A stretch of DNA of 64,000 nucleotides from Ascidiella aspersa (lineage: Eukaryota), in contig OZ004611.1 of NCBI GenBank assembly GCA_963924565.1, positions 1,054,001 to 1,118,000 on the forward strand, given 5' to 3'. Positions 14,474-46,450 of the stretch are shown here, piece by piece. The notes beneath the pieces are model-generated. The model ran no database searches and had not been told where the DNA came from. It saw only the letters and a list, made by a program, of their open reading frames with translations. Made by a program: the position numbers and the translations under genes. Position 1 is the stretch's first letter, and each line of letters opens with the position of its first letter.

Positions 14474-14635
14474 GTCAAGTCCAAGTTCTCTCAGTTTCGA
14501 TCTGATCACCTCTTTGCCTTCCTCAGTGATGCCACAATCATCGACCCACAACTGCTTGATGTTTGGAAGGACGCGAGAAAGCTCAAGAGCTCCTTCGTCG
14601 CCGATGCGGTTATTAGTCAGATCCAGCCGCTTGAT
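14474..14635 (-). pseudogene. Orphan terminal-type LRR exon (cassette D): IKRLDLTNNRIGDEG...LRELGLD
   Basis: 162 bp, open, ttcag acceptor and gtgagt donor. No upstream exons before the orientation switch at ~15130-15410. The last exon appears removed by a deletion junction at ~13100. Confidence 0.7.
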
Positions 14636-19225: not shown

Positions 19226-19556
19226 TAGTTCAAAGACGGAAGAAACTATTTGATTCTGTGATGTTATTTTTACGCAACACGCTTCAGCCTTCCTGTTCAT
19301 TTGGTTGCCGACAACCTTCCAATGCTCAACAGTGCTGTGGTTGTATTGAAACTTAAACCAATGTACTTTTCATCGCAATCTTCGTTTAAAATCTAACTTA
19401 TACTTAACTGAATGAGACATGCACACACATATGTGTGGTTACAACTGTGATCTAGCCCCTCTGAAACTGCTTTTTTTCAAACGATTACGGTTTACGTGTA
19501 ATTAGTACACCCGAAAAGCCATAGCAGACTCACTAAATCTGTTGATCTATTAAATA

Positions 19557-19628
19557 GCCTGCAGTGAGGTTCAAACTCACGACCCCTGATTATACAGAAT
19601 ATCGCTCTACCAACTGAGCTACACAAGC
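19557..19628 (-). ncRNA. tRNA-like sequence (tRNA pseudogene or SINE head)
   Basis: 72 nt with A box TAGCTCAGTTGG, D-stem GCTC/GAGC and T-stem GTGAG/CTCAC. Anticodon position reads GTA but the anticodon stem does not pair. Confidence 0.55.
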
Positions 19629-22600
19629 TCGGAGAGGTTACTCGACTCGCTCCTTTCTAAGCCTGTGTAGCGCGTATAACAGCGTGGAAATTTACACATT
19701 GGCGTTATCAATTACGTTGTATATGTGACATTATAAATGCATCTTTGTTCATCAGCTGTTTACATAAGAACATAGTCGTTTTGTTTTATGTAATCTATTA
19801 ACCTAGGGCTGCCATATGAAGTATATTAAAAGATTTGTAAAATAAATATGAAAGGCCATTTGATAACACTGAAAAATGCCCAACTGTCTTTTCATGCATT
19901 TGTGTTTTCTTGTATTTTTATGTTTTTATTTGCTTTTTGGTATGAAATCTAGGTCAAACCAAATGACTTTTAAATGACAGGGATGAGAACTAATAAATTT
20001 TTTTATCAATGTACATAAATTTGCGTTATTTTATTTTTTGTGTGCTGTTGGGTGATAAATAATTGTTACGTGTTTTATTTTCCACTACAACGTTATCACC
20101 GGTTGCTGATTATGCCGACTGTAGATTCTGACATTCATTATTGATTTGCGCCTTTACTCTTAAACATAGGGTTAAGAATTAAGTTTTCGCATTTCGGGAC
20201 ATATACAATGACGTAATGGTTTCGTGCTGTCTCATGTGCTGTTCGCGTGTTTAATTGGACTCCGGACATGTTATTTTCTATCTCTAAACAATCTGCAAAT
20301 CTCACGCCCATTATTATCGCCCGTATTCCGCCTTGATAGCTGGGTTTACCTTTCTAGGAAATGGCCTTCCATGTAATCTTTCCACGAGACAACCACCCTG
20401 TAAACCAGCGGCCGTGGGTTCCCGACAGCGCGTTCCGACAAAAAAAAAAAAAAAAAAAAAAGTTTTTGAATAGTGTGTAGACTTTAGTAGACGCTTGGGC
20501 TGCGCCTGGTGCATTTAGCGAGTAAGACGTTAGGTGTTTATGCTCTGTCATTTCATTGTTTTTGAGTAATTTTGTCCTAGTATAACAATTGTTTGTGGTG
20601 TGGTAGTTTTCGACTCTTGCATCTATACATTAGGTTAATTGTTGTGGTCTTTAATATAAACTTTCATTACTAGGTTATTTAATATCCGAATTAAGAACTC
20701 ACTGGCGACTTTAACAAGAGGTTTTGGTAATTCTCAAAAATTACTAGTTAAAGACGTTGTTTTCGGCCTAATTGGCGAATGTACAAAGTTACACCAAATT
20801 AAAATTATCAGAGTTATATAACTTTAAAGCAGCTCGCTCAATAGACTGTCAGAGGTTGATTCCTACACCACAATTGGCCGATAGTTATTGACCTGTCGTT
20901 CTAAGAGCTTATCATATAACAGGGGTGGCCAACACGCGGCTCTTCACCCAGTTATATTCGGTTCTTACATTCATGTTGTAATTTTTTAGAATGTTCCGAT
21001 TTTGTTTTGTTAGGAGGTTAAGTTATGGATTTTTGCGCGAAAGTTTGAGCTTTTTTATTTAGCGTTTGCTATGAACTACCGCTTCGAACACAAATAAATA
21101 TTCTAGCAAACCGTTTCGAGCAGCAACTGACTGAGTTATAACGCAATACTCAAAAAATACAAAGGAGCAGAAACAACACGGCTGCTCATAAACGCTACAA
21201 GTAAACGTTCTGTCAGTTAAAATGGTGACTATTGTGCTCATTATTTACAAAAAAGAGAAATGGATGAAAAGTTTTTTGAACACTTGTTTTCGTTGCAGCT
21301 TTTCAAACAAGGCAAACAATTGCTGTCGATTGTAGTTTATTTTTTAAATTTGCGTTGTTAAAAATAAAGTACTACGCAGAAAACCGTAAGCGCAGTAGAA
21401 TTTTTTAGCAATTTTTTGCAGTTTTAGACATTTTTGTTGCAATTTATTTTTACAATTATGAGGAAATTAGTTTGGCGAGTTCAATGTTAAATATTATCAA
21501 CTTTCCAATTTTATTATTTCTAAATAATATTATACTCACCTGGCGCTTTGCTCAGCTTTAGCTTTAGATTTGCAAACAATAATATAAAATTGCAAAATAT
21601 AGCTTTTTAATGATAACGAATTGCAGTACTCGTTAAAGTATCGTTAAAAAGCTGTGTTTTATTTTGCTATAGCGCATTTCTTTAAACATGCGATAATAAT
21701 TAACGCATTTCACGTTTGACCAGGACCGCCCTATGTACGGAACCGGTTTATTTGACTGGTGTCCAACGCAATAGGAAGTTTGGAACGCAAAAGTTTAAAT
21801 AGCTTACGAGTGAATATTTTCCAGCACAATATGTGAGAAAAAATCCCAAATAGCAGGATCTTATACGGAAGAGCAAAAAAGTGCCTTAAATACCGAACTG
21901 CCACAATGAACACACGGGTGTTTGATTACTTGTTCCTGCCGACGTAGAACAGTGGTTCTTAACCTATTTCTACCCTTTTGGTAATTGTCCTGTGCCTTGC
22001 GCCTCCCGTGGGTCTTAAATAACTTTAATATAGGAGACCTGGCGCACTGGGATTGTTTGCCCGTGCGCGATATGTTAATTTTTATCTGATTTTAACAAAC
22101 ATGTTGTGAGGACATTTACTCACAGTTAAGGCTGCAAAGAAACACGTCAGAATGTCTCTCGAAGCGCAAACATTAATCATTGCATAAAACGTGTTTTGAA
22201 ATATGTGATGACACACAATGCAATGACCATAATACAAATAACATTACAATTTCGCGCAAAAAAAGAGTACCCCTGCGCTAAACAGTTGTGATATATGAAA
22301 TGAGCGCAAAACATTTTCGCAGTTTTATTGTTAAAGTTGGCAAAAACACATTGTGGAGGTGGTATAGTGCTCAACTCCTTTGAAATATCATACTGTTCTG
22401 ACTAAACACAGCCCCAATCTGTAGTTAGTGGCAGATAAATCTAAGAACTGAGAAACTATTAAAAGTTAGCAGCCCAAAAGTTCGCAAATCGCAAAATCAT
22501 GAACCATTTTTCCTCGGTTACTTACACATGTGTTATTTTGCAGTAAAGCATAGGACAACTTACAGGCAGAATTAACAACAAACGCAACATGGGACAATCT

Positions 22601-25366: not shown

Positions 25367-28300
25367 CTATTGAAAGAAGCCAAAATCCACGCTGTCCATC
25401 TGCAAAACACAAGATAAAAGTAATTGTTGTAAAAGGTTTTTATGCATAAGTAACTTTTGTTCCTTTTCAGCCTATTTAACACCACGGAGTCCAATTAACA
25501 TGAAAAAGCAGATTATTGAGTAATTAGATTATTTCTAAAAAAAAAAACTATGCGTCCATGGCACCGACACAAGATACCAGGGAATAAAAAGACAAATAGA
25601 TCAAAAACTTTTACATTTACGATGTGATTTAGTTGCCAAAAGTTGTTTAGGATTTATCAGGGAAATAAAGATTAAGCTAAATCAACAAATACAATTTCCC
25701 AAAGCACATTCAATAAACTATTTTGTAATATGGTAATCTTATTAATTTTTATTTATAATTTATCATTAGCTGAAAGAAAAAAATGATTTGTTGCATCATA
25801 AGCTGACAAAATAATTTGTCTAATTACTTTGTTTTTGCTTAGTCATGCAAACTTTTGAGTAAAACCAAACATTTTCCCCAAATGTTTTTAATATTATTCC
25901 AGAAATTACGAATCTAAACCAATTCGATTTTATAGTTGTTATGTGTTGGCAGTTTTATTTTAAGTACTCCTATATTGAATAAAAGAATTAATCATGATAG
26001 TCGCCATTCCTGTTAAATAGACAGGTGACATTCGCATGTGGATTTACCATTAAACTATATATTTGGATGTTTCAATCTGATTTTGAGCTGCATGTTGAAA
26101 CAGCTTATCTATGTAACAGTGTTAGAGTACAAGAAAAACAGACATGTGCACCTTCAGGCCCCAGTTTGTACTATAGCATACCCCTTATGTATTAGGTAAT
26201 AGGCCTAGTTTACCACCTCTACATGGCAATGCTGATACATTCCTTAGGCAAACACATCAGTTAAGTTTAGCGGCGCGAACAAAAAAAAGAATAATTTAGG
26301 CGCAAAAATATTCTTCACCAGAAAAGGCTGGCCCAGACAAACAAAACCGCATTAGCTCAAGGCAATAATTTTTTAACGCCAGTTTTTTAATTATTCGTAA
26401 AATAGAAAATAAATATAAAAAGTTACGTCTCGCTATTTGACACATTACTTTAAATTTTTGCCGCAATAATGTTTTACACTTCTCCCCGGATTTATTTGTT
26501 TTTTTTAGAGCCTCTAGTGTTGGTGTTAGACCAACTTATTTACATTGTGACGTAACACAGTGACTTCTCGTGTCAGTGATGTAGGTTTTTAATTAATTTA
26601 TTGTTGTTACTCACGTCACGTCCAAGTTTTCTCAGTTTCGATCTGATTACCTCCCTGCCTTCCTTAGTGATGCCACAATCATTGACCCACAACTTCTCGA
26701 TGTTTGTGAGGACGCGAGAAAGCTCAAGAACTCCTTCGTCGTCGATGCGGTTAGCAGTCAGATACAGCCACTTGATCTGAAACAACAAATTGACGAGCGA
26801 ATTTAGATTTTAAAAGGTAGGGTTGCCATATTTAGAAACGAAAAATCCTGGAAAAACTTACTACGGTTGAATTTTGACCAACTCCAGATCAGGGACGTCA
26901 CAAGTTACGTCATAAAGTTACAAAACGTGACGTATTTATATTAAAAAGACGGAAAACACTCGCGTCTCGCGTGTAGAGCGTAAATTGGCTCAGTATAGTT
27001 GAACAAAATTTATTTTCGAGGGTGCGATGAGAGACAGGGCATTTGTATTGTAAAATTGGCAAATAATTTAGTTCGTGGGGGGTGTAGCGTGTTTTTCTTG
27101 TCATTTTGTCAACTGCGAATTCTAACTTTAATTATTAATTTGCGCCTTACTTTAAAAATAGGGATTAGGGACTTGGGTTCATATTTCGAAATGTATTAAA
27201 CTGTAACATCTTATTTTGGTTGGTATGTGTTTAATCTGTTTGTGCACACGGCCCTTTTTAAGCCAGTTTAACATTCTCTGCACACGGGACATTTAATGGT
27301 GCGTTTCTCGTATTCTTTCTAATCTGACCTCTGGCGATTCTCCACTGGACTTTTAAATTTAATGACTGCCAATTTCGCAAGTAATGGTCACGTTGTTCTG
27401 ATCTAATCTTTTCGCTGGCGCCAGCCGTCCTCGGACCGAAGAATTAATCTGTTTTGCCATCGCTATAACTTTACTGTCTTTATTAAATTGCGTGCTTTCC
27501 TATAACTCGTTGACGCCCTTCCCGCACTTCCAGTTCTTGCGTAACTGCTTTTTAGAAGGTGTCTATATTAATCGGCGTCAGAGCGTCTCTTTTGTCCAGT
27601 ATTTGGGAAGTGGGCCATTGCGTTTAGAGGTCAGCACGTTTTTGTGTAGTGTCCTGTCTGTAAGTAACTTTTGCTCACGTATTAAGCGTTGGTGTGGTGT
27701 TTGACATTTTGGTTCATCTAATACACTTAGTTGCTTGGGTTAAGTTGTGTGGTCTGTAGAATAAACTTAGGCATTGAGGCAAATAACTCCCGATTATCTT
27801 TTAAGAACTCATTGCGGTTGCGTCCTGTCGGACAAGTATAGGTTAGGCGGTAGATTCTAATATACTAGGGCGCGGCAGGGCGTAACACGTTTGGTGCCCC
27901 GGTGTTTGTGGTTGCTATTTGCTTCCGGAATAAGGTATTCGGGTATAAGATTTTGTTGCGCAAAATTTGGTTGTGTTTTGTGTTGCGAACGTGTGTTTGT
28001 CGGAATTTTTGAAGCGTGAATTGGGCGTTTGTGTTGGTGAGAGTTGAAAGAAGTCTAGTCTGAAACCTTTTCGCGTTTGTAAAATCATGGAAAAATTAAC
28101 GTCTGTTTTGGCGTCTTTAAACAAGCCGGTGGGAACTAGCGAAGGTTCGGGCGTGTCGCATCAGGACCGCAAAATGCAAGCACAGAATTATATTGCTGAA
28201 ATTGAAAGACTTAATCTTGAGTTGGACTTGTTGCGTTCTTCTAGACAAGATCATTGCATAGCCCTTGAGAAATCTCGCGATATGGCAAAGGGAATCGAGC

Positions 28301-31300
28301 AGCAATTAAGGATTGATCAAAAAGCGCACAAGTTAACTTCTAACGCTAAGGAGGCGGAAATTAAGGCTTTGCAAAAGTTATTCAAAGACGATTCAGCAGT
28401 AAAATCGTCCACTTTGGTTGCGTTGGCGTCTAGGCCAGTTTCATATGATGTAGAGGATGTGAAAGATGTCTCGTTAGAAAGTCCAGCGCCTCCGTATGTT
28501 TCGAATTTGTATCCGGGATTGGGCGATAAGCAAAGCGATGTTCCTGGCGATGTGCCAGCTGAATCGGTGAAACCAGTGTTGGTAGGTGAGAAATTTACCG
28601 AGGATTCTTACAATGCTTTAACGCCTCCGTCGAGCTACATACCGCGAACGAGCGTTTCAGATCCACCTCGCTTACCTCGTTTTAGCTTTGAAACCCCATG
28701 GGCTAATCCGCAGAAGTTAAAGTTTGACAATTCCACTAAGAAGCGCGTTGACTTGGCACAATTAATGCGCGCCGCTCCAGGAAAGGAACTTCAATGGCTC
28801 GAGTTAAATGTCCGCCAGTTAAGGCAATTAGGTTTAAATAACGAAAATTTGTTGACAACGCTGTTGGCGACTTGTGACACGCATTTGTCTCTACAATCTT
28901 TTTTACAAGCTTTGCTTTTGAATATAAACATGACCAGTGAACAAAAGCTAACGACCCTGCAGGAGCACGTAAAGGCAACGTTTAAAAAATCTCATCTGGC
29001 ATTGATCAGTCATTTGCGCGCTTTGTTGGAGAATGTAAGATATGACAATGTCGTTGTAAACCCAGTTCAGGCGATAACTACGGCTTTTGCTCAGGAAGGC
29101 ATTTTGTTGGATGACTTGGCAAGCGACAGTCCGTTTTTGCGTTTAGTTGAGGAGGTGTTGTTAAAGAAATTGCCTACCAGTGTTGCGTTGCAAATTGAAG
29201 GCGAGCCTTGGAGAAATATGCAGAAAATATTACACCGCTATTTCACCTTATCTACAGCCCGTTCCAGCAGCTCGGATCCTGTCAAGAAAGTTTTGGTCTC
29301 GCATTTTGATGACGGTAAGACTGTTTTATCTGATAATAATGAGGAGTTGAAAAAACTAACTGAAAAGGTTTCACATTTAAGCGGGTTGGTGTTGCAGAAA
29401 ACTATTGATGAAAAAAACGATAGGACTAACAATTGTGAATCGAATCAGCAATCTAATATGTTATCTAATGATATAAGGTCTCGTTCTAAATGTTTCTTTT
29501 GTCAGGTTGAGGGCCACTTTGCTCGTGACTGCGATTTGAAGCGGTTGTTTCGTGCAAATGGTTGGAACGTGTATTCAAGAACAGGTGACGAAGTTTTTTT
29601 GTCCTCGAGATCTGCGGGCCGTGGCGGCGGAAGATCGACCTCTGCAGGCCCGTGGAGAGATGGGCGTTGGTCTCGGCAACCGACCTCGGCTCGGGACTCG
29701 GACAACGGCGGGAACTCGCAACGTTTTTCCGGCCGAGGGCGGGCGCTGGGTCGTTCTGACCAACAGGTACCTCGTTTCAATTCATTCAATCGTTCAAATA
29801 CCTTTCGGAATAATGATTACTCACAAAACGCCTTTTCAAAAAACTAGATTCAGGCTGGGGCTGCAATGAACCGCCGCAACCTCAGCCTTCTCGAATGACG
29901 ACACAATTGAATCACGTTTTGACTTCACCTAATGGCACTGCGCATTTCTTTGTAACAGATAACGTGACTTGTCAACCATTTCTTTTAGATACGGGTGCTG
30001 GGGCTAACATAATACATCCTTCTGCGTTGCCTAAGTCTATAAAGATAAGCCCTTCGAATGCTAAATTTTCGACTTTAGATGGGACACGCAGTGCTTTGAA
30101 ATCACAAGGAACAGTCTCTGTTCCGATTATGATCTCTTCCACTACTATAACTCTTGAGTTTGAAGTTTTAGATCAGACGCCTTATAATATCATTGGAATT
30201 GCTGACATCATTCAACACGACTTGCTGAACAAAGGAACTCTTGAGATTCGTGGTTCGTATAACGACGCGGTACAGGTATTGTCTGCTTTGCGTTGTGATC
30301 CATCAGAGGCGTTTGATAACCAAAAAAAGTTGACTTACGAACAGGCAGCAAAAATGGCTTCAGATCGTCTTCCTCAGGCGGCGATTGAGCCATCCGTAAA
30401 AACTTTAATAGCTCCTGAAAAGTTTGACGAAATCTTAAACAAATTTCCGCATATCTCTGATTTAAAATATAATCTGCAGCAACCGTATAAGCTGCCTTAT
30501 AAATTGTCCATTCAATTAAAACCTGGCAGCCATCGGCCAATAACTGGCCCCATATATAGCACTGGTCCCGAGCAAATGGCGGTTTTACACAAATGGCTAG
30601 AAGAATTTTTAGACCTAGGAATTTTGAAACGGGATTCCACTCCTTGGCGGAATCCAGTATTTTTGGTAAAGAAAAAGCCATCAGGATACAGAGTCGTTGT
30701 TGATTTTCGCGCTTTGAATAGCATTTTAACTCAGGATGATTACAGTTTGCCTCGTGTTGACTCAGTTCCGAAATATATACAAGGTAAAAAATTTTTCAGT
30801 GCAATTGACTTAACAAAAGCTTTTCACCATGTACAGGTGGATGAGGATTCCACACGTTATCTGGGGTTAGCTACGGAATTCGGATCAGCTTCGTGGTCTA
30901 ATTGCCCTCTTGGGGTTAAATCCGCCCCAGGCGTCTTCCAGGCCAACATGGATGAGTTGAGCAAGGAAATCTTGATTCGTTACAATGAGTGGAGACAGTC
31001 GAGAGGTTTGAGTGTTGTTTGTGAAGCTGTAAAATGTTATATTGATGATATTCTTATTGCCACTGAGACTGAATCTGAACATTTGAAACTAATTGACATC
31101 GCTTTAGGAGTTTTGTCTGAATACAATTTAACTGTAAATAAGGACAAATGCGTTTTTGGGAAAGATAGAGTCCGTTTCCTGGGTCATGTCGTTTCTGAGG
31201 AGGGTCAGCGACCGCTCTACTCTCGTTTACAAGGTTTACTTGAGATTCCTTTGCCTAAAACGGTGCATGATTTACGTCAATTTTTGGGTGTGGTAAGATA

Positions 31301-34300
31301 CGAAAAGAAACATGTGCCGCATTTAGCCGCTCTTACGTGTTCATTGGATCAGATCGGTAAAAATGTACCTGCTAAAATGTCTTCCAAAGTTTTGATAGAT
31401 TGGACCGCAGCTCTTTTAGAGGCATATTTAGAAACTCGGCAAGCTATGATGAGCGCAACGACACTGCGCTCTTACGACCCCTCGCGGAGGTTGCACATCG
31501 CCACAGACGCGTCAGATAAGGCCGCTGGCGCTGTTTTGTTTCAGTTCAACCATAAAAATGAAATGGAACCATTAGGGTATTTCAGTCAATCATTAAACAA
31601 AGCTCAACGGTGTTATTCGGCTTTTGTTAAAGAGCTTTTGGCGTTGCGTTTGGGTTTGCATTATTTTCGGAATCATTTAGAAAGTAATCATTTTACGATA
31701 CACACCGATCATCAGCCTCTTGTCCGAGCGATAGAAAATGGTCATTCGCCTTTAAAAGGTCTTTCGGCAAGACAACGTGATTGGATAGGCCAGATTTTGG
31801 AATTTGATTTTGACATACAGCATGTAAAGGGTTGTGACAATGTTATCGCCGACTATTTTAGTCGTGAAGGCTGTACAGTCTCATCTGTAAATGAAAAACC
31901 CCTTTTGTATTTCGCTAGAACACAGTTTCCTTCAGCTTTGTCCCTAGATCGTTTGTATGAACTACAGAAATCGTCTTTTTGCGACTGCACGACAACGACT
32001 TGCGACAAGCGTCATGTAAAACAGGGCCGACTAGCTAAATTTCACAACGGTTCATTAATAATGTGCGATGTTCCTGGTTCGTTAGATCTGGTTCTCTTGC
32101 CAAATGTGGAATCGCAGAAGTATGTTTTTAAGTCATATCATGACTACACTCATCACAGTGCGCGTGTAACCTGGAATGCGCTTCGTAATATCTATTGTGG
32201 TCCTAAATTTCGCAAAAATATCTTGCGTTGGTCAGCGGAATGTTCGGTTTGCATCAAAAATCGTCCCAAACGTTTAGAGCAGGTCGCTTTACAGCCTTTC
32301 CAGTATCCGAATGGGCGCCTTCGAACTTGTCATATGGATGTGTTTTCGCTACAAGCTTCTAATACTCAGCCAAGCTATCATAAATTATAAACTATGATCG
32401 ATCGCGAGACGACCTTTGTTGTGTTAGCTCCCTTGCTACATGAGACCGCTGAACATACGATTGATGCGTTTAGAAAATATTGGATTGCTTATTTGGGTTC
32501 ACCGGAAGTCCTTGTAACAGACAATGGAGGGAATTTTAGGTCTATGGCGTTTCATAACTTTTGTACGGAACATAATATCGATCATAGATACAGCACACCT
32601 TATAATCCACGGTGTCAAGGAAAAATTGAGCGTTTTCATCGGTCTTTGCGTGATCTTGTTTCAACCCAGCCGGTTCCCGAGAATTGGCTGCAGAACCTCG
32701 CATGGCTACAGTTGGCATTAAACTCCATGTGGCGAGGACACATGGATTCGTCGCCTTTCAAAGCTTTAGTGGGCATGACTCCGAGAACTCCTGTAAGTGT
32801 AACTGCGCCTTTAGTGTCTGGATTTGCTCCCGAAAATCTTGATTCGGAGCCCGGAATTGTACATAGTCGATTGCCTTCTCGCAGAACGGTGCGAACGGTT
32901 CCGTCAAAATGGGAGGACGCTACGCACGCTTATTTGCCCGTTCGCTCAAGGTCAAATAAAATCTCTCCACTGCGGGAAGGGCCATTTGAAATTGTTCGCT
33001 TGACAAGGACTAACGTGACTGTTGATTTGTCTCAAGGAGAATTACGCAAGCAGCCTCGCGATCAGGCATTTCCTGTAACATTATCCGTTGATGAGTAGGA
33101 GAATTTGAATTCAGATGTATGTTGTTTGTCATTGCAATTGCTTGTTTTCGTTTTGGCTAACCTTTAATGTTCGATAAGTCCTTTGGGTTTCTGTTGTTTG
33201 AAATGTCCGAATTTTTCGGGTATAAATGTTTTGCTCGTGATTTGTTGTTTTGGGCGCGTGGTCATGGAAATATGGTTTCCAATGCCTAAACTAATGCTCG
33301 GAATTATTGTTTTTGGAATTCTGATGTTTTTGAAAATATGAGCGCTGTAATTTTCCCCAATGGAGTTTCTTGATAATTGCGTCAGTTTTTGATTTCATCG
33401 TTTATTGGTGATTAGAATGTTTGCAATCTTGCGTTTGTCTGCTGTGTGATGGCGAATGTGATTTTTGGTGTTCTGCGAAATTTGTGTCTTTCAGTTGGTG
33501 TGCAGGACTGCGCGTTGTGCAAACTGATTGCGGTGATGTAAATATTGAAATAAAAAAAAAGGGTTATAATGATAAATTTTCCCTTAAAAAAAAAATATAG
33601 CCGTAGGAAGGACTTGGGAAGTTCCTTTAGCGGCGAAGGAGGTCGACTTATCCCTCCTAAATTGAAGTGCGGCGGTAGGGTTGGTAGGATTCCCTTAGAC
33701 GCGCACTATATTTTTGCATATTGAAGTGGTAGGGCCGAATTGCCTCACAAATATGTATCTGGGGAGTGGAGAGTCCCCTTTCGTGCTAGTGTCGCACAAT
33801 TGACGCGTTCTTGAGTAAATGTGGTAGGGCCGGGTAGCCTCACATGTGATAAAATAAGAGAAGTAGCATTCCTCTTAGTGATAAAAAAGAGACGTAAAAT
33901 TCCTCTTAGCGATTTAGAGTCGAAGATGATGACGAGTAATTCCATCTGACGACGATAGGACAGGGTTATGGTCCTTCTAGACGTTGTGTCTGATATTCGC
34001 CGGCGAGTTTATTAACGTGGCAGTTGTATATTTGTTAATTGTTTTTTTTAACCTATTAAAAATTAAGTGTTAACCAGGTTTTGGTATACCTAAACGTTTT
34101 TGCATAAAGACTGATCATCTTATGTTGCAGCGTTTTTAAGATCTAGGGTTCATTGGATTGTGCACGTCCTTTGAAACGATAACCTGAACACTAAACAAAA
34201 AAAATTAACCTGTAAATAATGCATATCATGAAGTTGGGATGTGTTCCTATGTTTTTCCTGGTTTGTTTTTGGACATGTAATTCCGTGTCCAATATAAGAG

Positions 34301-37300
34301 CATGGAGGATAAAACGTTTTGTGGAAAACGGGACAAATTCGGTAATGCGTTGTACCCCGTGTACGGCATCCTGTGGAAATAGTTCCAGGATTTGTGAAAA
34401 CGGGATTCGTTTACCCTGTGTTCTGGCAAAATGTCCTGTTTCATGCCCCAAATGCTCTTCTGCTCCAGGTTCGTTGGGAAAGCAGAATTTTCGTTTAATT
34501 CAAGGACGTCAGGTAAAATGTTCAGTGTGTTTACCTACCTGGACCTTATGGAGTGAGTGGTCTGCATGTCACTCTATAAATAAACAGATAAGGTCACGCA
34601 ATTTTTTTGCGATGCGTGGTTCGGTTTTACGCCCTATTGCTGGTGAAAGTCAGCAAATCCGAAATTGCACCAGTAATGGTCAAATAGTCAATGTAAATGA
34701 CACAACTAATATATCGGTCCATCCTCATTCTGTAGCGGTTATTGCTGTTATAATGCCACTAACTGTATTAGCATTTGTTGTAATTTGTCTGTTTTGTTTG
34801 AGGGCATATAACCGGAGCCGTCGACTCCGGGTGCCTCGGATTTAATACCTTGTTTTGTTGTGTAGGTTTAACAATGAATTGGATTTTGTTTTCATTTTTA
34901 TTTTTAAAATTAGGGGTGGTTTTCACTCAGAATATCCAATTGAACGATGTGGCGGTGACTGATGCGTCCAATCTGGACGCATTAAAGTTAAAAGCAATGG
35001 TTCATCCGGAGTCCAATGCATCTCAAACTTCCATTCCGCTTCATCAGCTGCAGACGAACTTTAGCTCCAATGGGTCAACATTTTTTTCACCCATTTTTGG
35101 CAATTTCAGGTCTGCAGCCAAGACTTGGACCGAGTACCATTATCCTACAGGAAAGTATTATGCAACGCCGAAGGAGTACGCGGAGGAATGCACATGTGAT
35201 AGACAACGACAATTGGTAACATTTCGGGTGGGGGTTAATCACATTAGGCTATCAAGCCTACATGAAACCTATCTAGAAGTGAATTCGGAATCCCACACCG
35301 ATGTATACGGAAAGGTCCACGACCTAAGATCGGCGTATAGTCTGTTAACACTTTTCCTATGCACTCTTTTCCCAAAATATGAAAGAATAAAGGCCGTCGT
35401 AACTTTAAATCATGAGCCTTATAATTATCCATCCAAGGCCAAATTAGCTGATTGGTGGCCTGTTCAAGATTATTATGATTTGCATGAGTTAACTCGTTTT
35501 CGTGTTTTAAATAGCGCTACGCCTTGTGCTGAGACGGGTTGTTTGGGCACTATGGCTGTTTCTGTCCCTGTAGGAAATCCTAGACTTTTCGATAAAGACC
35601 CTCGTGCTTCTTCGACCGATTTTATTTTTCCGAATGATACAAACATTCGTGGTCATCATAACGAACATATAATACGCACTCCCGGATGTTTGCTTTATAG
35701 TCAGTTTGGAACTAACGGGTTTTGGGCTCCCTTTAATCAAACCACTCCCGTTGACACTATTGGCTTGCGTATGAATGTACATATATCTGTTTTTAACCTT
35801 AGACTCGCTCATTTTTCTAACAAGGGTTTGATTGTAAAATTACCGTATTATAGGCTCGGTGATAAGTTTTCAATATTGTTCGCGTCTTATCCAATTAATT
35901 GGTTTCCTAATGAGACCATTTTCGCTGATGGTGATGGTCCTCCTGTCCATGATTTGGTATTAGATTTCCAAATCAAGAAAAACTCTTGTGATCATAATGT
36001 ATCTGTCCCTTATCAAGTTTACAATTTTTATGACACTTATCCATTAAATCTTGCAGGTGATACCGCCTGTCAAGCTAGGGCATCAAGGTCTGTTTGCACC
36101 TCGGCAACAGGCTCATTAGAGGTTTCTTTGATGCATAAGATTCCACACGCGCCGTTTGAAAATGAACGTAATATCCCTGTAGCCCCTGTACAATTTTTGC
36201 CCACTCATTTTCGTCAAAAACGTTTTTTCTTTGTTGCCTTACTCGCTTGTTTATTTTCTGAAGCCGTAATCCATTTCGAAATGCGAAAATTAGAGAACGA
36301 ATTTGCTATTCGTCTAAATAAGCTGCAGTCGGAGATAGACGACAAATTTAACCGAGTTGCAGCTCAAATGAAACAATTTGCGGTCTTATTAACCCAGAGT
36401 AATTTGTCTCTGGAAGATTTACAGAATACGCAGTTGGCATTGGCACTTGATTTAAGACGCTTCGAGTATATGCAGCTAAATGAAGATCGTTTACTCTTAC
36501 ACGAGATTCAAAAGAATAGAATGCTGATACTACAAACTCAAAAGTCTGCCCTCGAAAATACACGCGCTACCCTGGGTTCCTCCATTGCGCAGTCGCATGC
36601 CATACGGGCATGTCTTCGATCGTTGAACACTTTGCAAGCACTTAAAGCCGATAATACGTCGCTTTATTCCCTAGCGATTACTCGCGGCCAAGTTCGTCTT
36701 CGCAGATTAGCTACTCTGGAGTTGCGACAGCTAAACAACTCGATGGCAAACGATTCATTAAGCCTGGACGAAGCTGTTCTCAACAATCGAACGAGCGTTG
36801 TTCATCGAGACCTCGATCGTGACATCTCAGCTCTGCAAAACGTCAGCGTCGCAACGAGCTTCACGCTACATCCGCTTGTGTTCACGGAAGACCCATCACT
36901 GTTCAAGTTTTCCAACAGCGGTTTCCTTGGCGATGTCGGAGCTGGTTTAAATTCATTGGAAAACGTCGCGATCCATGGGCTAGATGATGTGCGGCAGGTG
37001 GTTACATCGACTATTGATGATGCCACTGGAATTCTTGGCAAACCTCTTCTTGTGCTTGCCATTTTTGGAGGAGCTGCAGCTGCTGTCATCCTCATCCTGT
37101 TGACTAGCTGCTACGCGTACAGACATTTTCGTGCCAGGAATGACGCTGTTTATTCACGTGGCATGCCAATTATTAAATGAACTTTTTAAAGGCGGAAGGA
37201 AATGTAGCGTGTTTTTCTTGTCATTTTGTCAACTGCGAATTCTAACTTTAATTATTAATTTGCGCCTTACTTTAAAAATAGGGATTAGGGACTTGGGTTC

Positions 37301-39097
37301 ATATTTCGAAATGTATTAAACTGTAACATCTTATTTTGGTTGGTATGTGTTTAATCTGTTTGTGCACACGGCCCTTTTTAAGCCAGTTTAACATTCTCTG
37401 CACACGGGACATTTAATGGTGCGTTTCTCGTATTCTTTCTAATCTGACCTCTGGCGATTCTCCACTGGACTTTTAAATTTAATGACTGCCAATTTCGCAA
37501 GTAATGGTCACGTTGTTCTGATCTAATCTTTTCGCTGGCGCCAGCCGTCCTCGGACCGAAGAATTAATCTGTTTTGCCATCGCTATAACTTTACTGTCTT
37601 TATTAAATTGCGTGCTTTCCTATAACTCGTTGACGCCCTTCCCGCACTTCCAGTTCTTGCGTAACTGCTTTTTAGAAGGTGTCTATATTAATCGGCGTCA
37701 GAGCGTCTCTTTTGTCCAGTATTTGGGAAGTGGGCCATTGCGTTTAGAGGTCAGCACGTTTTTGTGTAGTGTCCTGTCTGTAAGTAACTTTTGCTCACGT
37801 ATTAAGCGTTGGTGTGGTGTTTGACATTTTGGTTCATCTAATACACTTAGTTGCTTGGGTTAAGTTGTGTGGTCTGTAGAATAAACTTAGGCATTGAGGC
37901 AAATAACTCCCGATTATCTTTTAAGAACTCATTGCGGTTGCGTCCTGTCGGACAAGTATAGGTTAGGCGGTAGATTCTAATATACTAGGGCGCGGCAGGG
38001 CGTAACAGGGGGTCATGGCTATAGAGAACCGGAAAATATTTCTTCAGCTAAGATGACGTACAATTCATTGATTGATTCGTGATATTAAAGTAACATGTAA
38101 TAATTTGACAATAATATTGTAAGTAGATTTGTATTATGCCGAATATTAATACCTCTCGTTTGGTGATAGTTATTAGCGCTCATCTTTAATCCATAACCCA
38201 ATATATCCTAAAATGGTACAATTGTGGTGTTTGATTTTCCCAAGGACAAAAAAAGGTGTATCATCTCCCGAATAGGACTCACTAGCGACTTTAGGTTTAT
38301 TACTTATTAAACTAATATATGATATCACCATAGGTTTCTCAACATAACTAAAATTCGCTACAGCAGTGACGTCATCTTCCTCCTTACTTCCTGTTGTGGC
38401 AAAATATTTCGTCACCTTAGCTAACCCTGAAACTCCTTTAACTGCTATGCTATGTTTATAACAACCAAGATGAGATTTTAAATCCCCGCTACCTTTGCAT
38501 GAAACTGAGACAAATGTGGCTGGGTTGAAAACTAAACACTCTCCTTTCCATTCATTTTTACCATTTTCGAAGCATGAATATTTCGCTACCTTAAATGCGT
38601 CAAGTTGAAAAGTAATATTCCATCGTAAAACGTGCTGGCCTTAGACAAAACGCGTTATGAGGTTACTTAAGGTCAACTTTAGGCCAATATTTAGCGAGGT
38701 TACTCACAGCGTAATTGTTAAGTAATAGTAACGCATTACTTGCAGTAGTAACTTTGTATTCTTTACATCATGATACTTAAACGGCTTATTGACAGAAGAC
38801 GTTTGTAGTAAACTAAAACTAAATCACAACAATACCTTATAAAAACGAACAGGACTTGTGAAGAATTCATTGTGTTGCATTTTACTTATTATATTTACTA
38901 AAAATTAAACGGGGCAACAACCTGGTTTTTATAATTATGTTGTTTAATGTTCTTGTTCGTGCAGTTATGCATCTCAATTTAAACAACAACTTTAAATGGC
39001 AGTTGTTTAGAATGTAAATCATCTGTAATTTAATTTTTCGATTACAATATCGATATGTTGGAAAAAGTTTTATGATTAATTGCGAAGTCGCTAAAGG

Positions 39098-39140
<43 letters not shown>

Positions 39141-41885
39141 GAATATTACAACAAAAAATAGAAGGCAAATAGTTAATAACAAATACACTGGGATTCGAAA
39201 TTCTGGTTCGTTATTCTGTATTCGAAACCTATTGTTCAAGGATACTTTTTTTTCCACTTTGAACATTTCTAGTCGCGTTAACATTGAACAACACAAAGTC
39301 GACAATAAAGCACTTTACCTTGTGCGGCATTTTCCCGATTCCTTTGCAAATGTGTTTCAAACCTTGACTTGTCAGGTTGCAGCCCATCAGATTCAACTCC
39401 ACGATGTTTGGGAGGACGCGAGAAAGCTCAAGAGCTCCTTTGTCGTCGATGTAGTTATAACTCAAAACCAGACATTTGATCTAAAAACAACAAATTGATA
39501 AGCGGATTTAGATTTTAAAAGGTAGGATTGCTATATTTTGAAACGATAAATCCTGGACAAGCTTACTACGGTTGCATTTGACCAACTCAAGATCAGGAGA
39601 CGTCACAAGTTACGTCATAAAGTTACAAAACGTGACGTATTTTTATTAAAAGACGGAAAACACTCGCGTCTCGCGTGTAGAGCGAAAGTGGCTTCGTATA
39701 GTTGAAAAAAAAAATTATTTTCGTGGGTGCGATGAGACACACGGCATTTCTATTGTAAAATTGGCAAAAAAATATTTAGTTCGCGGGGGGTTATCGGTAA
39801 ACGTTTTTTTAGCAAAGATGACGTACAATTTATTGTGGGTGCTTAACTGTGTGAAAAGCATAAGTACCCTCATAAGCAGTGACGTCATCTTCCGCCTTAC
39901 TTCCTGTTGTGGCAAAATATTTCGCCACCTTGGCTGACCCTGAAACATTTTTAACTGCTTTGCTATGTTTATAACAACCAAGATGTGATTTAAGTCAGCG
40001 ATATACCTTTGCATGAAACTGAGACAATTGTGCCTGGCTTGCAAACTAAACACTCTTTTCATTCATTTTTACTATTTGTGAAGCAATTAATAATTTGCCC
40101 GCATTCCACTCGTGGGTTTACAACTTCTCATGCCATTTTGTTCCATAAAGCTACAAGGTCAATTTTAGATTTAGATGTTAGCAGTAAATAACATTGTACG
40201 CAACAGTTATGTCCTTTGAATACTAAGCTCATTACGAAACAGGAAAAAAATTCAACTACTTTTAGTAATCATTATCATTTTTGCGAATTTATTGGCGACA
40301 TATATATTACACAGTACGGTTAAATTCCAGACATATAAACAGATCATTCCTCCCTGACACAGATTTGAACCTATTGAAAGTCACCTAATATGAGCCAAGT
40401 GAATTATAAAAGTTGGTCGCGGTAACATTGAACAAAAAAATGTTCACAATAATAAACATTCCTAGTCGCGTTAACATTCAACAACAAATAATCGACAACA
40501 AAGCACTTTACCTTGTGAGTCATTTTCCCGACTCCTTCGCAAATGTGTTCCAAACCTTGACTTGTCAGGTCGCTGCCCATCAGATTCAACTCCTTGATTG
40601 GTTTGTCGACATGCTGGAGCATCCGTCCCAAGGCGTGGAATGAACTTGTTCCGATGGGTTGGCTGCCAAAATAAGCCTCCACAGGGAAGTGCTTTGCGAA
40701 ACATTGGAGCACTGCTTCATTGCATTCTTGCAAATCAACAATCTTTCCAATATCTAAACACAACTTTATATTTAACAAATATTAAAAACAAGCAACAAAG
40801 AAACAACAAACAAATATAGTAAACGGTCATTGTGGCATCACAAGTGCGAAAACAATCGTGTTTTATTGACGGATGTAAAAATTAAAATAAATTAGCAGAG
40901 TAGAAATATCACAAAGTAACAGAAATGTTATATTCTTACCTTCAGGTTTTTGTTTGAATTCCTCGAGAAAGTGTTCGTAGAACATCTCAGCCTTGACTGC
41001 AAACATGGAAATCATTACTAATAATCATAGCTGTTTACTGTTGTTTTAACACATAAATGCGTCTACTATAACTGTTTACTTCATCGACATTTGCTTGTTA
41101 TTTACACGATTGTTTGACCACAAGGTGTCAGCAGACTAGAATGTTTTGACATTAGTTTTCGCCTTGTCTAATCTCATGCTTATTGCTGTGTTTCATTATA
41201 TATGTTTGTTGTGTAAGATGTTTACAGTACCAATAAATACATAAATTGAATCTTATAATTAACAATGCCAGGTCGGACAACTTAATTTACAGAAAAAAAA
41301 TCAGGATTTAAAAATTCAGTTTAAATGATAACCTCTGACTGGATTAAATTTGTCATTTCACCTTTAACATCGGCTTTAAACAAATAACTTACATTATCCG
41401 CTTAAAATGCAGCTGAAAATTACTAACAAAAACATAGTAATTAATTTAAAAGCATGTTAGCACACTAAGTATATTCTAGTACTGCAATGTTTGGCCATTT
41501 CAGTTATTCTTGTTGAAAACAAGTTTAAGTATAGCCAAGTTTAAAAATTGCCACTTACTTTTATTTTGTTGGTTCTGCGAATTGTTAGTTAAGGTTTGAT
41601 CGACATCAGATTGACTTGGTTGAGTGGCAGATGTTGATGGTTGTTGATTGACAACCTGCATACGAACATAGCTACTTGCCCTAATACCACAAAAACTGTT
41701 AATAAATATTGAGTTAAATGTTTGTGCCAGCATTGTGGATCCAATACCTTGAAACAGTAGTCAAATTTTTCAGGCCACAAAGTAGATTTTGGGGTCGCTG
41801 CGTACCACTTGCTTTTTTCCAGTTTTCAAAATTTTTAATTTTATATTCTTTATTATAGTAAATATTAAATAAATTTGCAAGTTGG
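25367..41885 (-). CDS. LRR gene B (RI/NLR-type LRR), possibly disabled; exons (41748-41885 damaged), 41559-41655, 40940-40996, 40512-40753, 39319-39480, 26615-26776, 25367-25399
   Basis: GT-AG boundaries with compatible phases from 41655 onward, ending MDSVDFGFFQ*. The first visible exon has AA instead of the AG acceptor and a 23-bp insertion relative to gene A. A 10.9-kb retroelement sits in the penultimate intron. Confidence 0.7.
27083..27887 (+). repeat. 5' LTR (805 bp)
   Basis: TGTAGCG...GTAACA. No differences from the 3' LTR seen by eye (constant offset 10120). AATAAA at 27760. Confidence 0.97.
27892..27905 (+). promoter_or_regulatory. Primer binding site TGGTGCCCCGGTGT (resembles complement of elongator tRNA-Met 3' end)
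   Basis: Starts 4 nt after the LTR. The first 10 nt complement the ...CGGGGCACCA end of vertebrate elongator tRNA-Met as recalled. Confidence 0.6.
28087..29847 (+). CDS. gag: Gag (586 aa)
   Basis: First ORF after the PBS. N-terminal coiled-coil-like segment, CCHC knuckle CFFCQVEGHFARDC and RG-rich tail. Confidence 0.92.
   Translation: MEKLTSVLASLNKPVGTSEGSGVSHQDRKMQAQNYIAEIERLNLELDLLRSSRQDHCIALEKSRDMAKGIEQQLRIDQKAHKLTSNAKEAEIKALQKLFKDDSAVKSSTLVALASRPVSYDVEDVKDVSLESPAPPYVSNLYPGLGDKQSDVPGDVPAESVKPVLVGEKFTEDSYNALTPPSSYIPRTSVSDPPRLPRFSFETPWANPQKLKFDNSTKKRVDLAQLMRAAPGKELQWLELNVRQLRQLGLNNENLLTTLLATCDTHLSLQSFLQALLLNINMTSEQKLTTLQEHVKATFKKSHLALISHLRALLENVRYDNVVVNPVQAITTAFAQEGILLDDLASDSPFLRLVEEVLLKKLPTSVALQIEGEPWRNMQKILHRYFTLSTARSSSSDPVKKVLVSHFDDGKTVLSDNNEELKKLTEKVSHLSGLVLQKTIDEKNDRTNNCESNQQSNMLSNDIRSRSKCFFCQVEGHFARDCDLKRLFRANGWNVYSRTGDEVFLSSRSAGRGGGRSTSAGPWRDGRWSRQPTSARDSDNGGNSQRFSGRGRALGRSDQQVPRFNSFNRSNTFRNNDYSQNAFSKN
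29838..29888 (+). promoter_or_regulatory. -1 programmed ribosomal frameshift signal
   Basis: A AAA AAC heptamer directly before the gag TAG, 7-nt spacer, then stem AGGCTGGGG/CCTCAGCCT. The -1 frame is open into pol. Confidence 0.85.
29844..33098 (+). CDS. pol: Pol (protease, reverse transcriptase, RNase H, integrase), interrupted by an in-frame TAA at 32388-32390
   Basis: LLDTGA protease, YIDD RT, TDAS...TDH RNase H, HHCC zinc finger and DDE core (HMDVF, TDNG, KIER). ORFs 29895-32390 and 32394-33098 are in the same frame. Confidence 0.95.
33559..33975 (+). other. Array of ~12 short hairpins in the pol-ORF3 intergenic region
   Basis: Consecutive inverted repeats, e.g. AGGAGG/CCTCCT, AGTGCG/CGCACT, GGGGA/TCCCC, TAAGAG/CTCTTA, AGGAC/GTCCT. 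Confidence 0.6.
34219..34845 (+). CDS. Accessory type I membrane glycoprotein with TSP1-like Cys-rich ectodomain (208 aa)
   Basis: Signal-like N-terminus, PCTASCG and WTLWSEWSAC...RSR motifs, several N-x-S/T sequons, TM VAVIAVIMPLTVLAFVVICLFCL and a basic tail. Confidence 0.8.
   Translation: MHIMKLGCVPMFFLVCFWTCNSVSNIRAWRIKRFVENGTNSVMRCTPCTASCGNSSRICENGIRLPCVLAKCPVSCPKCSSAPGSLGKQNFRLIQGRQVKCSVCLPTWTLWSEWSACHSINKQIRSRNFFAMRGSVLRPIAGESQQIRNCTSNGQIVNVNDTTNISVHPHSVAVIAVIMPLTVLAFVVICLFCLRAYNRSRRLRVPRI
34874..37180 (+). CDS. env: Env-like fusion glycoprotein (768 aa from ATG 34874)
   Basis: Signal peptide, RQKR furin site at 36212-36223 followed by hydrophobic FFFVALLACLF, long heptad-rich region, C-terminal TM and short tail. 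Located immediately before the PPT. Confidence 0.88.
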   Translation: MNWILFSFLFLKLGVVFTQNIQLNDVAVTDASNLDALKLKAMVHPESNASQTSIPLHQLQTNFSSNGSTFFSPIFGNFRSAAKTWTEYHYPTGKYYATPKEYAEECTCDRQRQLVTFRVGVNHIRLSSLHETYLEVNSESHTDVYGKVHDLRSAYSLLTLFLCTLFPKYERIKAVVTLNHEPYNYPSKAKLADWWPVQDYYDLHELTRFRVLNSATPCAETGCLGTMAVSVPVGNPRLFDKDPRASSTDFIFPNDTNIRGHHNEHIIRTPGCLLYSQFGTNGFWAPFNQTTPVDTIGLRMNVHISVFNLRLAHFSNKGLIVKLPYYRLGDKFSILFASYPINWFPNETIFADGDGPPVHDLVLDFQIKKNSCDHNVSVPYQVYNFYDTYPLNLAGDTACQARASRSVCTSATGSLEVSLMHKIPHAPFENERNIPVAPVQFLPTHFRQKRFFFVALLACLFSEAVIHFEMRKLENEFAIRLNKLQSEIDDKFNRVAAQMKQFAVLLTQSNLSLEDLQNTQLALALDLRRFEYMQLNEDRLLLHEIQKNRMLILQTQKSALENTRATLGSSIAQSHAIRACLRSLNTLQALKADNTSLYSLAITRGQVRLRRLATLELRQLNNSMANDSLSLDEAVLNNRTSVVHRDLDRDISALQNVSVATSFTLHPLVFTEDPSLFKFSNSGFLGDVGAGLNSLENVAIHGLDDVRQVVTSTIDDATGILGKPLLVLAIFGGAAAAVILILLTSCYAYRHFRARNDAVYSRGMPIIK
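37188..37202 (+). promoter_or_regulatory. Polypurine tract
   Basis: AAAGGCGGAAGGAAA abutting the 3' LTR. Confidence 0.85.
37203..38007 (+). repeat. 3' LTR (805 bp)
   Basis: Matches the 5' LTR; followed by GGGGG. Confidence 0.97.
39099..39135. repeat. (TA)n microsatellite
   Basis: Directly visible; an expanded version of a short TA run present in paralogous introns. Confidence 0.9.
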
Positions 41886-44554: not shown

Positions 44555-45885
44555 TTATTTACTTATTTTTGTTTACCTTTATTTACTTATTTTTGTTTAT
44601 TTTTGTTTTTTTTTGTTTAAGAAATAGATACGAAAAAGCAATGTAAAACTAGCAAAAAACGATAAGGTCAGAAGGTACTATACAACGGTTACGTACTGCA
44701 GGATTTATTTTAAATCTGTGCCTTCGCACGTGTCTGTGCGACTTCGCCTACGGCTGGCAATTATTAGTAATAGTAATAAAATTAGTGGTAAATAATAAGT
44801 AAAATGGTTGTTGACCAATTTGTAAACCTCGGGCAGCGTCTGCTCCGTTGTTTACATTTAGTTGTCATGGTGAGAAAATAAACAAAATCAATAGAAGATG
44901 ATTAAGCTGTATTTAATACGATTGCAATAGTTGCGATTTCACACTGTCTTGGAAGTGTTTAAAGGTGATATTTTTTTGTTCGTGACGTAAGGTTGCCCAT
45001 ATTTTAGGTCCTATATATTTAAGCTGTTTTTGGCCCGAGATCCTACGTATTTTTTCAACATAGTAATTTTTTGCGTCTCCCAGTCTAGTGTTATGCCTAT
45101 GTATCTCAGATAAAGGTCTTGAAAAATTTTGAAACAAAGCTGGAAGTAAGTTATTTTTGTAATGGTACATGAATTTAAGAATTTCCAATTGTGTTATATC
45201 TTGTATTTGTAGTATTTTGTTTTCTTTGAAGATTGTTTTTGTATGGATATGACTGTAATTGCTGATTCCAGATATGACTCTCAATGCTCTGTTCTGGAGT
45301 ATTTGTAAATGCTGAAGGTGTGATTGGCTAGCTCGTCCCCAGTTTATTATTCCATATTGCAGGTGGGAGTGAATAAAGGCGTAGTATAGCAATAATAATG
45401 TGTTTTTATTTATGTATCGTTTAATTGTGTATAGTACTCCAATGTACTGCGAGACCCTGGATGATACTGCTGTAATGTGTTGTGACCAGTTGACTTTGTC
45501 ATCCATGACAATTCCTAAATATTTAACTGAGTTGCTTCTGTGGAGTTCTACATTATTTATATGAAGTGAAAAATCTGCAATTTTTAGGTTTTAATTGTGT
45601 GTTATTACATATTGAGTTTTTGTATAATTTAGTGATAGTTTATTTGTCCTCATCCAGTCATCTACTTTAATTATTTCCTGTTGCATTTGTTTTTGTAGGT
45701 CCTTTGATTCAAGAGAGGCTGCATAAAATGGTATCATCAGCATACATTTTACATGACATGTCTGTGACATTTGGTAAATCATTTGTGTATATTTGGAATA
45801 ATATTGGAGATAGGATAGAACCTTGTGGTAAGCCACATTTTACTTGTAAGTATTGTGATTTGCGTTGTCTGGTAATTGTAGATAA
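44555..45885 (-). mobile_element. 5'-truncated LINE (CR1/L2-like) with decayed RT
   Basis: GLPQGSILSP, YADDT, KYLG and a C-terminal ORF at 44913-45506, with a frameshift and a stop. Tandem A-rich 3' tail near 44555-44600. Confidence 0.85.
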
Positions 45886-46147
45886 TAATAGTATACAAGG
45901 GTTTAATTCATAAAAAAAACGAAAAGGCCTAAAAGTTTTATTGAAATAGGCCGCGGGCTGGGCTAAATTACTTGACGGGCCGGATATTTATTTAAGCTGT
46001 AAATGCTATTAGGTACAATTATTCGAAAGTAGTTTTATTACCCCAAAAAAATATTGGACGACCGCACGAATAAACCAAATAATTTTTTAAACAGAAACAA
46101 AAATAGTGTTTTGAGCACAGGTAACCCAATTAGTTTACAGTGTATTG

Positions 46148-46450
46148 TGTTTGTTCCTAGGTATACGTACCTTGCCCAAAGAAGACCTGAAGACCTCCAG
46201 CGCCGAATTGGTTTACGGCTCAACCATTCCAATTCCAGGAGATTTCATCCCACCTACGCACGAGGAACCCCCGCCGATCGAATATGTACGAACGTTGCGC
46301 AAGGCACTGTGCAAATTGCTACCAGTGCCAACATCACGCCATTGTAACACTGAACATTCTGTACCGCAATTGTTACTACACAGTCATTTGGTTTTCGTTC
46401 GTAAAGACTCTTACAGACCCCCACTGAATCCACCATATGAAGGTCGTTTT
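46148..46450 (+). pseudogene. Gypsy integrase C-terminal remnant
   Basis: LGIRTLPKEDLKTSSAELVYG...VFVRKD...PPLNPPYEG (GPY/F-type module). Confidence 0.8.

Follow-up and report, generated by a model that had tools for sequence, protein, structure and literature searches.

A young Ty3/gypsy element of Ascidiella aspersa with a predicted class I envelope protein of an apparently uncatalogued family and an adjoining thrombospondin-repeat-like gene

Introduction

Ty3/gypsy elements that carry an envelope gene (env) are widespread in metazoans, and a survey by Chary and Hayashi (eLife 2026, PMC13524379) sorts all of the 1,512 env-bearing metazoan gypsy elements into two ancient types, 1,291 with an F-type and 221 with a gB-type Env. 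Here we describe an element of about 10.9 kb at positions 27083-38007 of a 64,000-nucleotide stretch of Ascidiella aspersa DNA (GenBank assembly GCA_963924565.1, contig OZ004611.1, positions 1,054,001 to 1,118,000 of the forward strand; hereafter the window), whose Env appears to fit neither type. An initial annotation of this DNA had placed env capture in insect errantiviruses, nematode elements and Oikopleura Tor elements, a range too narrow in view of the survey. An env-bearing element as such is not new and the present copy is defective; the novelty lies in an apparently uncatalogued family of class I Env and in the neighbouring gene for a membrane protein with a thrombospondin repeat (TSR).

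The element shares with the surveyed errantiviruses the order LTR-gag-pol-env (LTR, long terminal repeat), the succession of protease, reverse transcriptase, RNase H and integrase (PR-RT-RH-IN), a tRNA primer-binding site (PBS), a furin site, a fusion peptide, an invertebrate host and a young copy. It differs from them in the long surface subunit (SU) ahead of the furin site, in a cysteine-poor helical fusion subunit and in the TSR gene located in the 1,775-bp gap between pol and env (PMC13524379). Like Tor3b and Tor4b of Oikopleura (Henriet 2015), it has a non-coding gap between pol and env, a membrane glycoprotein with predicted furin cleavage and a possible env promoter; in Tor3b/4b the promoter between the two genes has been demonstrated (PMC4402516). 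In their Env the fusion tripeptide is F-x-G and seven cysteines are conserved upstream of the transmembrane segment (TM), whereas in Env of the window F-x-G is absent from the 30 residues that follow the cleavage site and the fusion subunit has a single cysteine; the available part of the Tor report does not mention a TSR gene (PMC4402516).

Small extra membrane open reading frames (ORFs) are known from bdelloid rotifer LTR elements, as a small ORF3 with a TM (PMC5408684), and from the MDG1 group, as sORF2 (PMC11952523). In those elements the small ORF replaces Env, whereas here ORF3 occurs alongside a complete Env and its ectodomain is TSR-like. Kuafuorterviruses and Troyka are comparable in being an LTR lineage of marine animals far from familiar elements. 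Assignment to Kuafuorterviridae was nevertheless rejected: those elements have IADD, VADD or LADD motifs, are mostly 5-6 kb long and, in Troyka, generate a 3-bp target-site duplication (TSD), whereas here the motif is YIDD, the length 10.9 kb and the TSD 5 bp (PMC11673190). The order of parts in Env, with the receptor subunit first, followed by cleavage site, fusion peptide, a predicted long trimeric coiled coil and a C-terminal TM, is that of vertebrate retroviral Env (gamma/beta), influenza haemagglutinin and coronavirus spike. Unlike these class I proteins, it shows no CXXC, CX6CC or fusion-subunit cysteine loop and gives no significant sequence or structure match and, unlike in retroviruses, the accompanying pol is of the Ty3/gypsy type. 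In the literature searched, with most subscription journals, Repbase, Dfam and GyDB beyond reach, we found neither a spike- or haemagglutinin-like Env in any gypsy element nor an LTR element with a TSR gene.

Env and its protein family

The env gene (34874..37180, forward strand) encodes 768 amino acids, in which sequence, alignment and model together predict a signal peptide, the SU (residues 19-450) ending in the furin site RQKR (447-450), a hydrophobic fusion peptide directly after it, a coiled coil (455-587), a second helix at about 595-660 and a TM at about 717-749; there are 13 N-glycan sequons overall. Env gave no match in Pfam (tried to E<=1) or NCBIfam and no significant sequence match in the PDB, where Env alone found a single entry (E=0.15) and the Env profile 33 at E<=10 (best E=0.14), many of them HA2 (E 0.7-5.6). 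Word-indexed protein searches likewise returned no relative among 4,984 candidates with Env as the query and none among 7,002 with alignment A1. A full HMMER scan of 1.84 billion protein representatives retrieved eight relatives at E<=0.001 (E=2e-159 to 6e-4), the closest being 42% identical along its full length and the eight 16-43% identical in the alignment. An NCBIfam scan of eight proteins yielded weak coiled-coil or unrelated matches only.

By sequence, Env is a member of a genuine protein family with eight relatives. This kinship is no coiled-coil artefact because a profile built from the SU of six distant members only (without window Env, P0036 and P0042) recognised the window SU with 76 bits, against a maximum of 3.4 bits for 300 shuffled sequences (187 reported), although its members had originally been retrieved with window Env as the query. 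The cleavage motif [RK]-x-K-R, with a hydrophobic peptide after it, is present in all nine members, a feature common to all class I fusogens, and the distance from cleavage to TM is 275-306 residues in eight of them, P0043 being truncated. The subunit ahead of the furin site spans 430-550 residues in full-length members (about 430 in the window), and a GKYY-type block with CxC occurs in seven of the nine, the other two being N-terminally short. Two conserved SU blocks (about residues 64-125, with the CxC, and 381-450) flank a variable middle: identity to P0036, the closest relative, is 50% and 49% at the ends and 30% in between. The variable middle of an SU is the usual location of receptor binding. 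Residues +21 to +260 of the fusion subunit contain no or one cysteine across the family (one in window Env), and no member matches a viral fusion family of Pfam (window Env at E<=1, the eight relatives at E<=0.1).

Two further observations concern the context of the family. In P0037, residues 1-235 include, within one ORF, a part of about 195 residues that has a TM and a basic stretch and lies ahead of the Env signal peptide. A prokaryotic genome scan for Env context produced 39 pattern matches, none of which was confirmed.

Predicted structure and class of Env

AlphaFold2 run with the alignment modelled Env with moderate confidence only in the two conserved SU blocks and the long helices, the fusion subunit being almost wholly helical and poor in cysteine. 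When three copies of residues 451-716 were modelled together, a continuous coiled coil at 455-587 (133 residues) was predicted, with a score of 0.66 against 0.00 for the best of three controls. The interface showed a 3-4 spacing, the runs agreed on at least 39% of the contacts and the predicted local distance difference test (pLDDT) of the partner was at least 56. In microbes, 21 of 30 solved self-pairs had reached the mark applied to this score, as had none of 23 single chains; in eukaryotes the figures were 17 of 29 and none of 30, respectively. The 38 listed core positions of the coiled coil are 71% hydrophobic, against a background of 47%. Atlas look-alikes of Env were coronavirus spike in 22 of 30 cases (best 0.92) and haemagglutinin (0.90-0.91), which is weak evidence (recognition 1380). 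Of the profile and structure searches proposed in the initial annotation for both ORFs, the former supplied the eight Env relatives but no Pfam match for either ORF, and Foldseek found nothing at E<=0.001 for the Env model in viral and PDB libraries. VIA-align gave generic coiled coils only (Z<=7.8) and, in a further run, Z>=2 for 3 of 33 chains; the model is poor, and both comparisons are uninformative on fold.

Taken from its sequence, the anatomy of Env is that of a class I protein with the receptor subunit first: surface subunit, cleavage, fusion peptide, helical subunit and TM. A cleavage site beside the fusion peptide, a three-chain coiled coil predicted with three copies imposed and a C-terminal TM are all in place in the modelled protein. 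Env appears to match neither the F-type nor the gB-type layout, a judgement made on sequence anatomy and not on a resolved fold, and in this respect it seems stranger than the initial annotation held. A gB-type (class III) Env, the ectodomain of which has five domains, internal fusion loops and cysteine bridges, was rejected on account of the fusion peptide right after the furin site, the 133-residue coiled coil and the lack of any gB match in Pfam or the PDB. Env of gamma/beta type is defined by a CXXC in SU together with a fusion-subunit loop of the form CX6CC or CX5-7C (PMC9967133); it was also rejected, as none of the nine family members has either loop and one, P0039, has the CXXC.

Several points weigh against this assignment. 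Mean pLDDT of the AlphaFold2 model was 34.7 for Env alone and 43.8 with the nine-row alignment, and stayed below 50 in the SU middle. Three copies were imposed as the sole stoichiometry, the calibration set of the trimer mark consists of two-copy cases only, and the mark was reached by one of seven proteins without an older solved relative, and the score may reflect likeness to solved coiled coils. The second helix was not confidently packed back, there being no confident contacts past residue 587. The 3.5-residue heptad periodicity is weak in window Env (149 of 2,000 shuffles were as strong), and the share of such shuffles falls below 5% in just four of the nine family members. The eight relatives could, moreover, belong to exogenous viruses.

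If the two-type scheme of the 2026 survey (PMC13524379) has to be extended by a third type, bait-driven searches have missed a class; the baits and the HHpred filter of that survey would probably miss an Env that matches neither type. Among the 15 tunicate rows of the survey, none of the nine with LTR coordinates has an 805-bp LTR or a size of 10.9 kb (PMC13524379). As a compact class I fusogen, the protein would bear on the open question of how retroviral Env, haemagglutinin and spike originated, and its family could, if the assignment is true, represent a branch so far missing from the ancestry of class I fusion proteins. With the TSR membrane gene beside it, the element would have a type of accessory surface protein that we did not find for Metaviridae in the literature searched.

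Insertion, age and lineage of the element

From left to right the element comprises the LTR, PBS, gag, a frameshift signal, pol, a spacer, ORF3, env, a polypurine tract (PPT) and the second LTR, all on the forward strand. Both LTRs (27083..27887 and 37203..38007) measure 805 bp, run from TG to CA and are identical (0/805 mismatches), which bears out the very young age proposed in the initial annotation and sets an upper bound of 0.37% (95%) on their divergence. The 5-bp TSD copies (27078..27082 and 38008..38012) read GGGGG within a G run, with 6 G and 5 G around the element against 6 G at those empty paralogous sites that match best; in seven paralogous repeat units of the window the empty site shows the same G run uninterrupted. 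The PBS (27892..27903) begins 4 nt past the 5' LTR and is tRNA-Met(CAU)-like, its reverse complement agreeing in 11 of 12 nt with a tRNA end that the eLife supplement labels Met_CAU (PMC13524379). The PPT (37188..37202; 14 of 15 purines) adjoins the 3' LTR. Because of the identical LTRs, the TSD with its empty paralogous sites, the PBS and the purine tract, the insertion is genuine and very young. It is the only full-length copy in the window. Two stretches of 50-60 bp (12566-12617 and 20109-20171), AT-rich and within host repeats, are 79-85% similar to the LTR start.

Metaviridae are defined by gag and pol enclosed by LTRs, with a PBS and a PPT (PMC7879559). These features, the order of the pol domains and the affinity of the RT place the element, as far as sequence tells, in this family (Ty3/gypsy). 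The best PDB match of Pol was Ty3 Gag-Pol (E=7e-66), followed at a distance by foamy (9e-21) and MLV-type (8e-18) proteins, and the RT is by these comparisons nearer to Ty3/gypsy than to retroviruses. Among 7,998 candidates scored, 35 Pol relatives had E<=1e-50; the best match was 30% identical, and the top identity among the matches was 36% over RT-RNase H. The proposal of a young, env-bearing and undescribed Ty3/gypsy lineage is supported; Pol is at most 36% identical to any match. In a tree of the window Pol and 34 of the 35 matches, mostly unnamed and with no named references (P0031 was too short to be included), it paired with the long-branch P0001 with support 100/100, and the two branched beside a 13-row clade. 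We take the motifs of this clade to be CsRN1-like.

gag, pol and the integrase stop

The gag gene (28087..29847) encodes 586 amino acids with a CCHC knuckle (zf-CCHC, E=1.4e-5) and an RG-rich tail and, like env, is intact, as the initial annotation had stated. A single LYPxL at residue 141 is presumably a late-domain-like budding signal. In PDB sequence searches the zinc knuckle alone was matched (E about 0.6). The putative -1 frameshift signal (29838..29891) consists of the heptamer A-AAA-AAC (29838-29844), located just 5' of the gag stop with pol in the -1 frame, and of a hairpin about 7 nt further 3'. The hairpin has a z of -2.66, which was equalled in 3 of 200 shuffles, and 12 of 1,654 sliding 51-mers fold as stably.

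The pol frame (29838..33098) shows by Pfam and PDB matches the Ty3/gypsy order PR, RT (YIDD), RNase H and IN (HHCC, DD35E, GPF), with env 3' of the integrase. The layout given in the initial annotation, gag and pol joined by frameshifting, then spacer, ORF3 and Env, held with regard to gene order, heptamer and a 1,120-bp spacer, but it did not mention that pol is broken. An in-frame stop (32388..32390) falls in the integrase core, past the first catalytic aspartate and ahead of the second; the pol sequences at its flanks align with consecutive stretches of P0001, up to residue 754 and then from residue 768. Because of this stop no whole integrase would be made and the copy, judged by its reading frame, is not autonomous, nor can it count as an autonomous or infectious endogenous retrovirus. 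Identical LTRs and the stop fit insertion of a defective genome by the integrase of a sibling, a mutation after insertion or an assembly error, and the bound on LTR divergence is compatible with a stop that arose after insertion. The copy could still provide Gag and Env.

ORF3 and the region between pol and env

Downstream of pol lies a non-coding spacer of 1,120 bp with short internal repeats (33099..34218), whose longest ATG-initiated ORFs have 51 codons on the forward and 66 on the reverse strand. Positions 33726-33913 contain a pair of 24-nt repeats (88%) and a tandem repeat of 31 nt, possible regulatory sites of an internal promoter, and we infer that the spacer is a candidate internal promoter or splice-acceptor region. 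It is followed by ORF3 (34219..34845), which encodes a predicted type I membrane protein of 208 amino acids with a signal peptide, a cysteine-rich ectodomain of 147 residues, a TM at about 170-193 and a basic tail. The ectodomain is basic (19 K/R vs 5 D/E, pI 9.8). None of 1,000 shuffles of 33099-34873 contained an ORF of 208 codons, the maximum being 149, and the codon-position base use of ORF3 resembles that of pol and env.

Residues 108-150 contain the pattern W-x2-W-x2-W-x2-C...R-x-R...R-x-C of TSRs, found in none of 200,000 shuffles (its W/C part alone in 26), a pattern composed after the ORF3 sequence had been viewed. The description of ORF3 as a TSP1-like membrane protein was borne out by this pattern but not by Pfam; there, TSP_1 included, no match appeared even at E<=1, and the alignment with the UNC5B thrombospondin repeat in the PDB was weak (E=7). 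The Atlas look-alikes of ORF3 were TSP1 clusters (0.86-0.90). We take ORF3 to have one recognisable TSR from which several canonical cysteines of the consensus are absent.

The 18 ATGs that lie from the start of ORF3 to that of env disfavour leaky scanning to env; the ORF3 stop and the env start are 28 nt apart. Splice-acceptor-like sites are found at 34130 and 34865, and ORF3 and env could be expressed from separate mRNAs by means of these sites or of a promoter in the spacer.

Proposed mechanism and alternative explanations

We lean towards the view that this is a recently integrated, deep-branching Ty3/gypsy element with a self-contained class I fusogen as Env and an accessory adhesin as ORF3, belonging to a family that spreads from soma to germline. 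In such an element, -1 frameshifting would yield Gag-Pol, and ORF3 and Env would be translated from separate mRNAs, either spliced or internally promoted. Furin would cut Env into an SU that binds the receptor and a fusion subunit, which would spring into a trimeric coiled coil bearing the fusion peptide. Particles would bud from somatic cells and enter other cells, probably germ cells, in the manner of Drosophila errantiviruses. ORF3, a host-derived TSR membrane protein, would stick particles or producer cells to sulfated glycans as an accessory and not as a trigger. The present copy would have been inserted by the integrase of a sibling or hit after its insertion. Whether it exemplifies a third case in which Ty3/gypsy elements independently captured an envelope, one of an undescribed class I family that extends across diverse invertebrate elements or viruses, is still mobile and is here joined by a captured TSR adhesin, we regard as evenly balanced. 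With regard to the role of ORF3, it counts against the mechanism outlined above that no ORF3 relative or linkage with Env was seen in other elements, a search for ORF3 homologues not having been made.

A captured host fragment without a role in entry, either a passenger or a modulator of immunity or cell behaviour, is an alternative identity for ORF3 that we consider possible, if on the unlikely side; Env alone would then suffice. ORF3 does look like a cut-down version of a multi-TSR host protein, with its one repeat and the several canonical cysteines presumably gone. LTR elements are known to carry additional ORFs in the pol-env interval (PMC6431247), and the distant Env P0037 is preceded by an unrelated membrane protein, which shows no similarity to ORF3. 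Against a mere passenger stand the open frame, the signal peptide and TM, the base use shared with pol and env and the position 28 nt from env. A basic TSR ectodomain would also suit glycan binding, as in TSR adhesins.

It appears improbable to us that the element is an ordinary one, that is, one with an errantivirus Env of F-type that has diverged very far, or one from a family already in Repbase, Dfam, GyDB or a paper. In favour of this reading, a deep core is common to class I fusogens (PMC12583693) and F-type Env has been catalogued in tunicate, annelid and mollusc elements (PMC13524379). Yet in F-type Env the head is folded and cysteines are conserved (PMC13524379, PMC5408684), whereas the Env family described here has a pre-furin subunit of 430-550 residues, matches no viral fusion family of Pfam and has no or one cysteine in its fusion subunit. 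On the same grounds Env departs from the F-type in profile and in the cysteine-rich folded head that there follows the fusion peptide. Among the tunicate rows, the nine (of 15) with LTR coordinates also show no match in LTR length or overall size.

The initial annotation had read the two glycoprotein genes as a two-component attachment and fusion system, in which ORF3 would bind the receptor and trigger Env, comparable to the attachment protein and F of paramyxoviruses. Two neighbouring genes for type I membrane proteins speak for such an arrangement, and P0037 likewise has a membrane protein before the Env signal peptide. We nevertheless think an obligatory system of two parts quite doubtful, because Env carries its own surface subunit of 430 residues, with a variable centre. 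Such a surface subunit is not known from F proteins that depend on a partner. The ORF3 ectodomain has just about 147 residues, and other elements have not been seen to share ORF3, with the limit on that search given above. Finally, that ORF3 is a small fusogen of FAST or sORF2 kind for direct transfer from cell to cell, as its single TM with a polybasic tail and the location of certain lepidopteran sORF2 3' of pol might suggest, is extremely improbable, since sORF2 proteins have 63-107 amino acids, an ectodomain of some 30 residues and, in most cases, a myristoylation motif (PMC11952523), whereas ORF3 has 208 amino acids, a signal peptide, a cysteine-rich ectodomain of 147 residues and no MGxxxS/T motif.

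Genomic surroundings

The element lies antisense between two leucine-rich repeat (LRR) exons (39486-39307 and 26782-26612) of a tandem LRR gene cluster. LRR_6 exons occur on both strands in tandem units of about 1.1-1.5 kb at 14400-17950, 26600-40700 and 53700-62700, and the 15 exon-like matches correspond to an expanded cluster, which we take to be NLR-like. The CpG observed/expected ratio is 1.06-1.08 at 35% GC, in contrast to vertebrate genomes depleted of CpG by methylation and in keeping with an invertebrate host. A fragment at 46115-46528 (forward strand) resembles the C-terminal integrase of another gypsy element and has motifs like those of P0002 and P0003, with no Pfam match. An open frame of 225 codons at 44913-45590 (reverse strand), also with no Pfam match, presumably resembles the C-terminal part of a reverse transcriptase ORF of long interspersed elements (LINEs). 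Outside the element, Rfam reports tRNA-like matches at 19556-19628 (reverse strand) and 52032-52104 (forward strand), where ARAGORN calls no tRNA; both lie in a dispersed repeat and are probably related to short interspersed elements (SINE-like).

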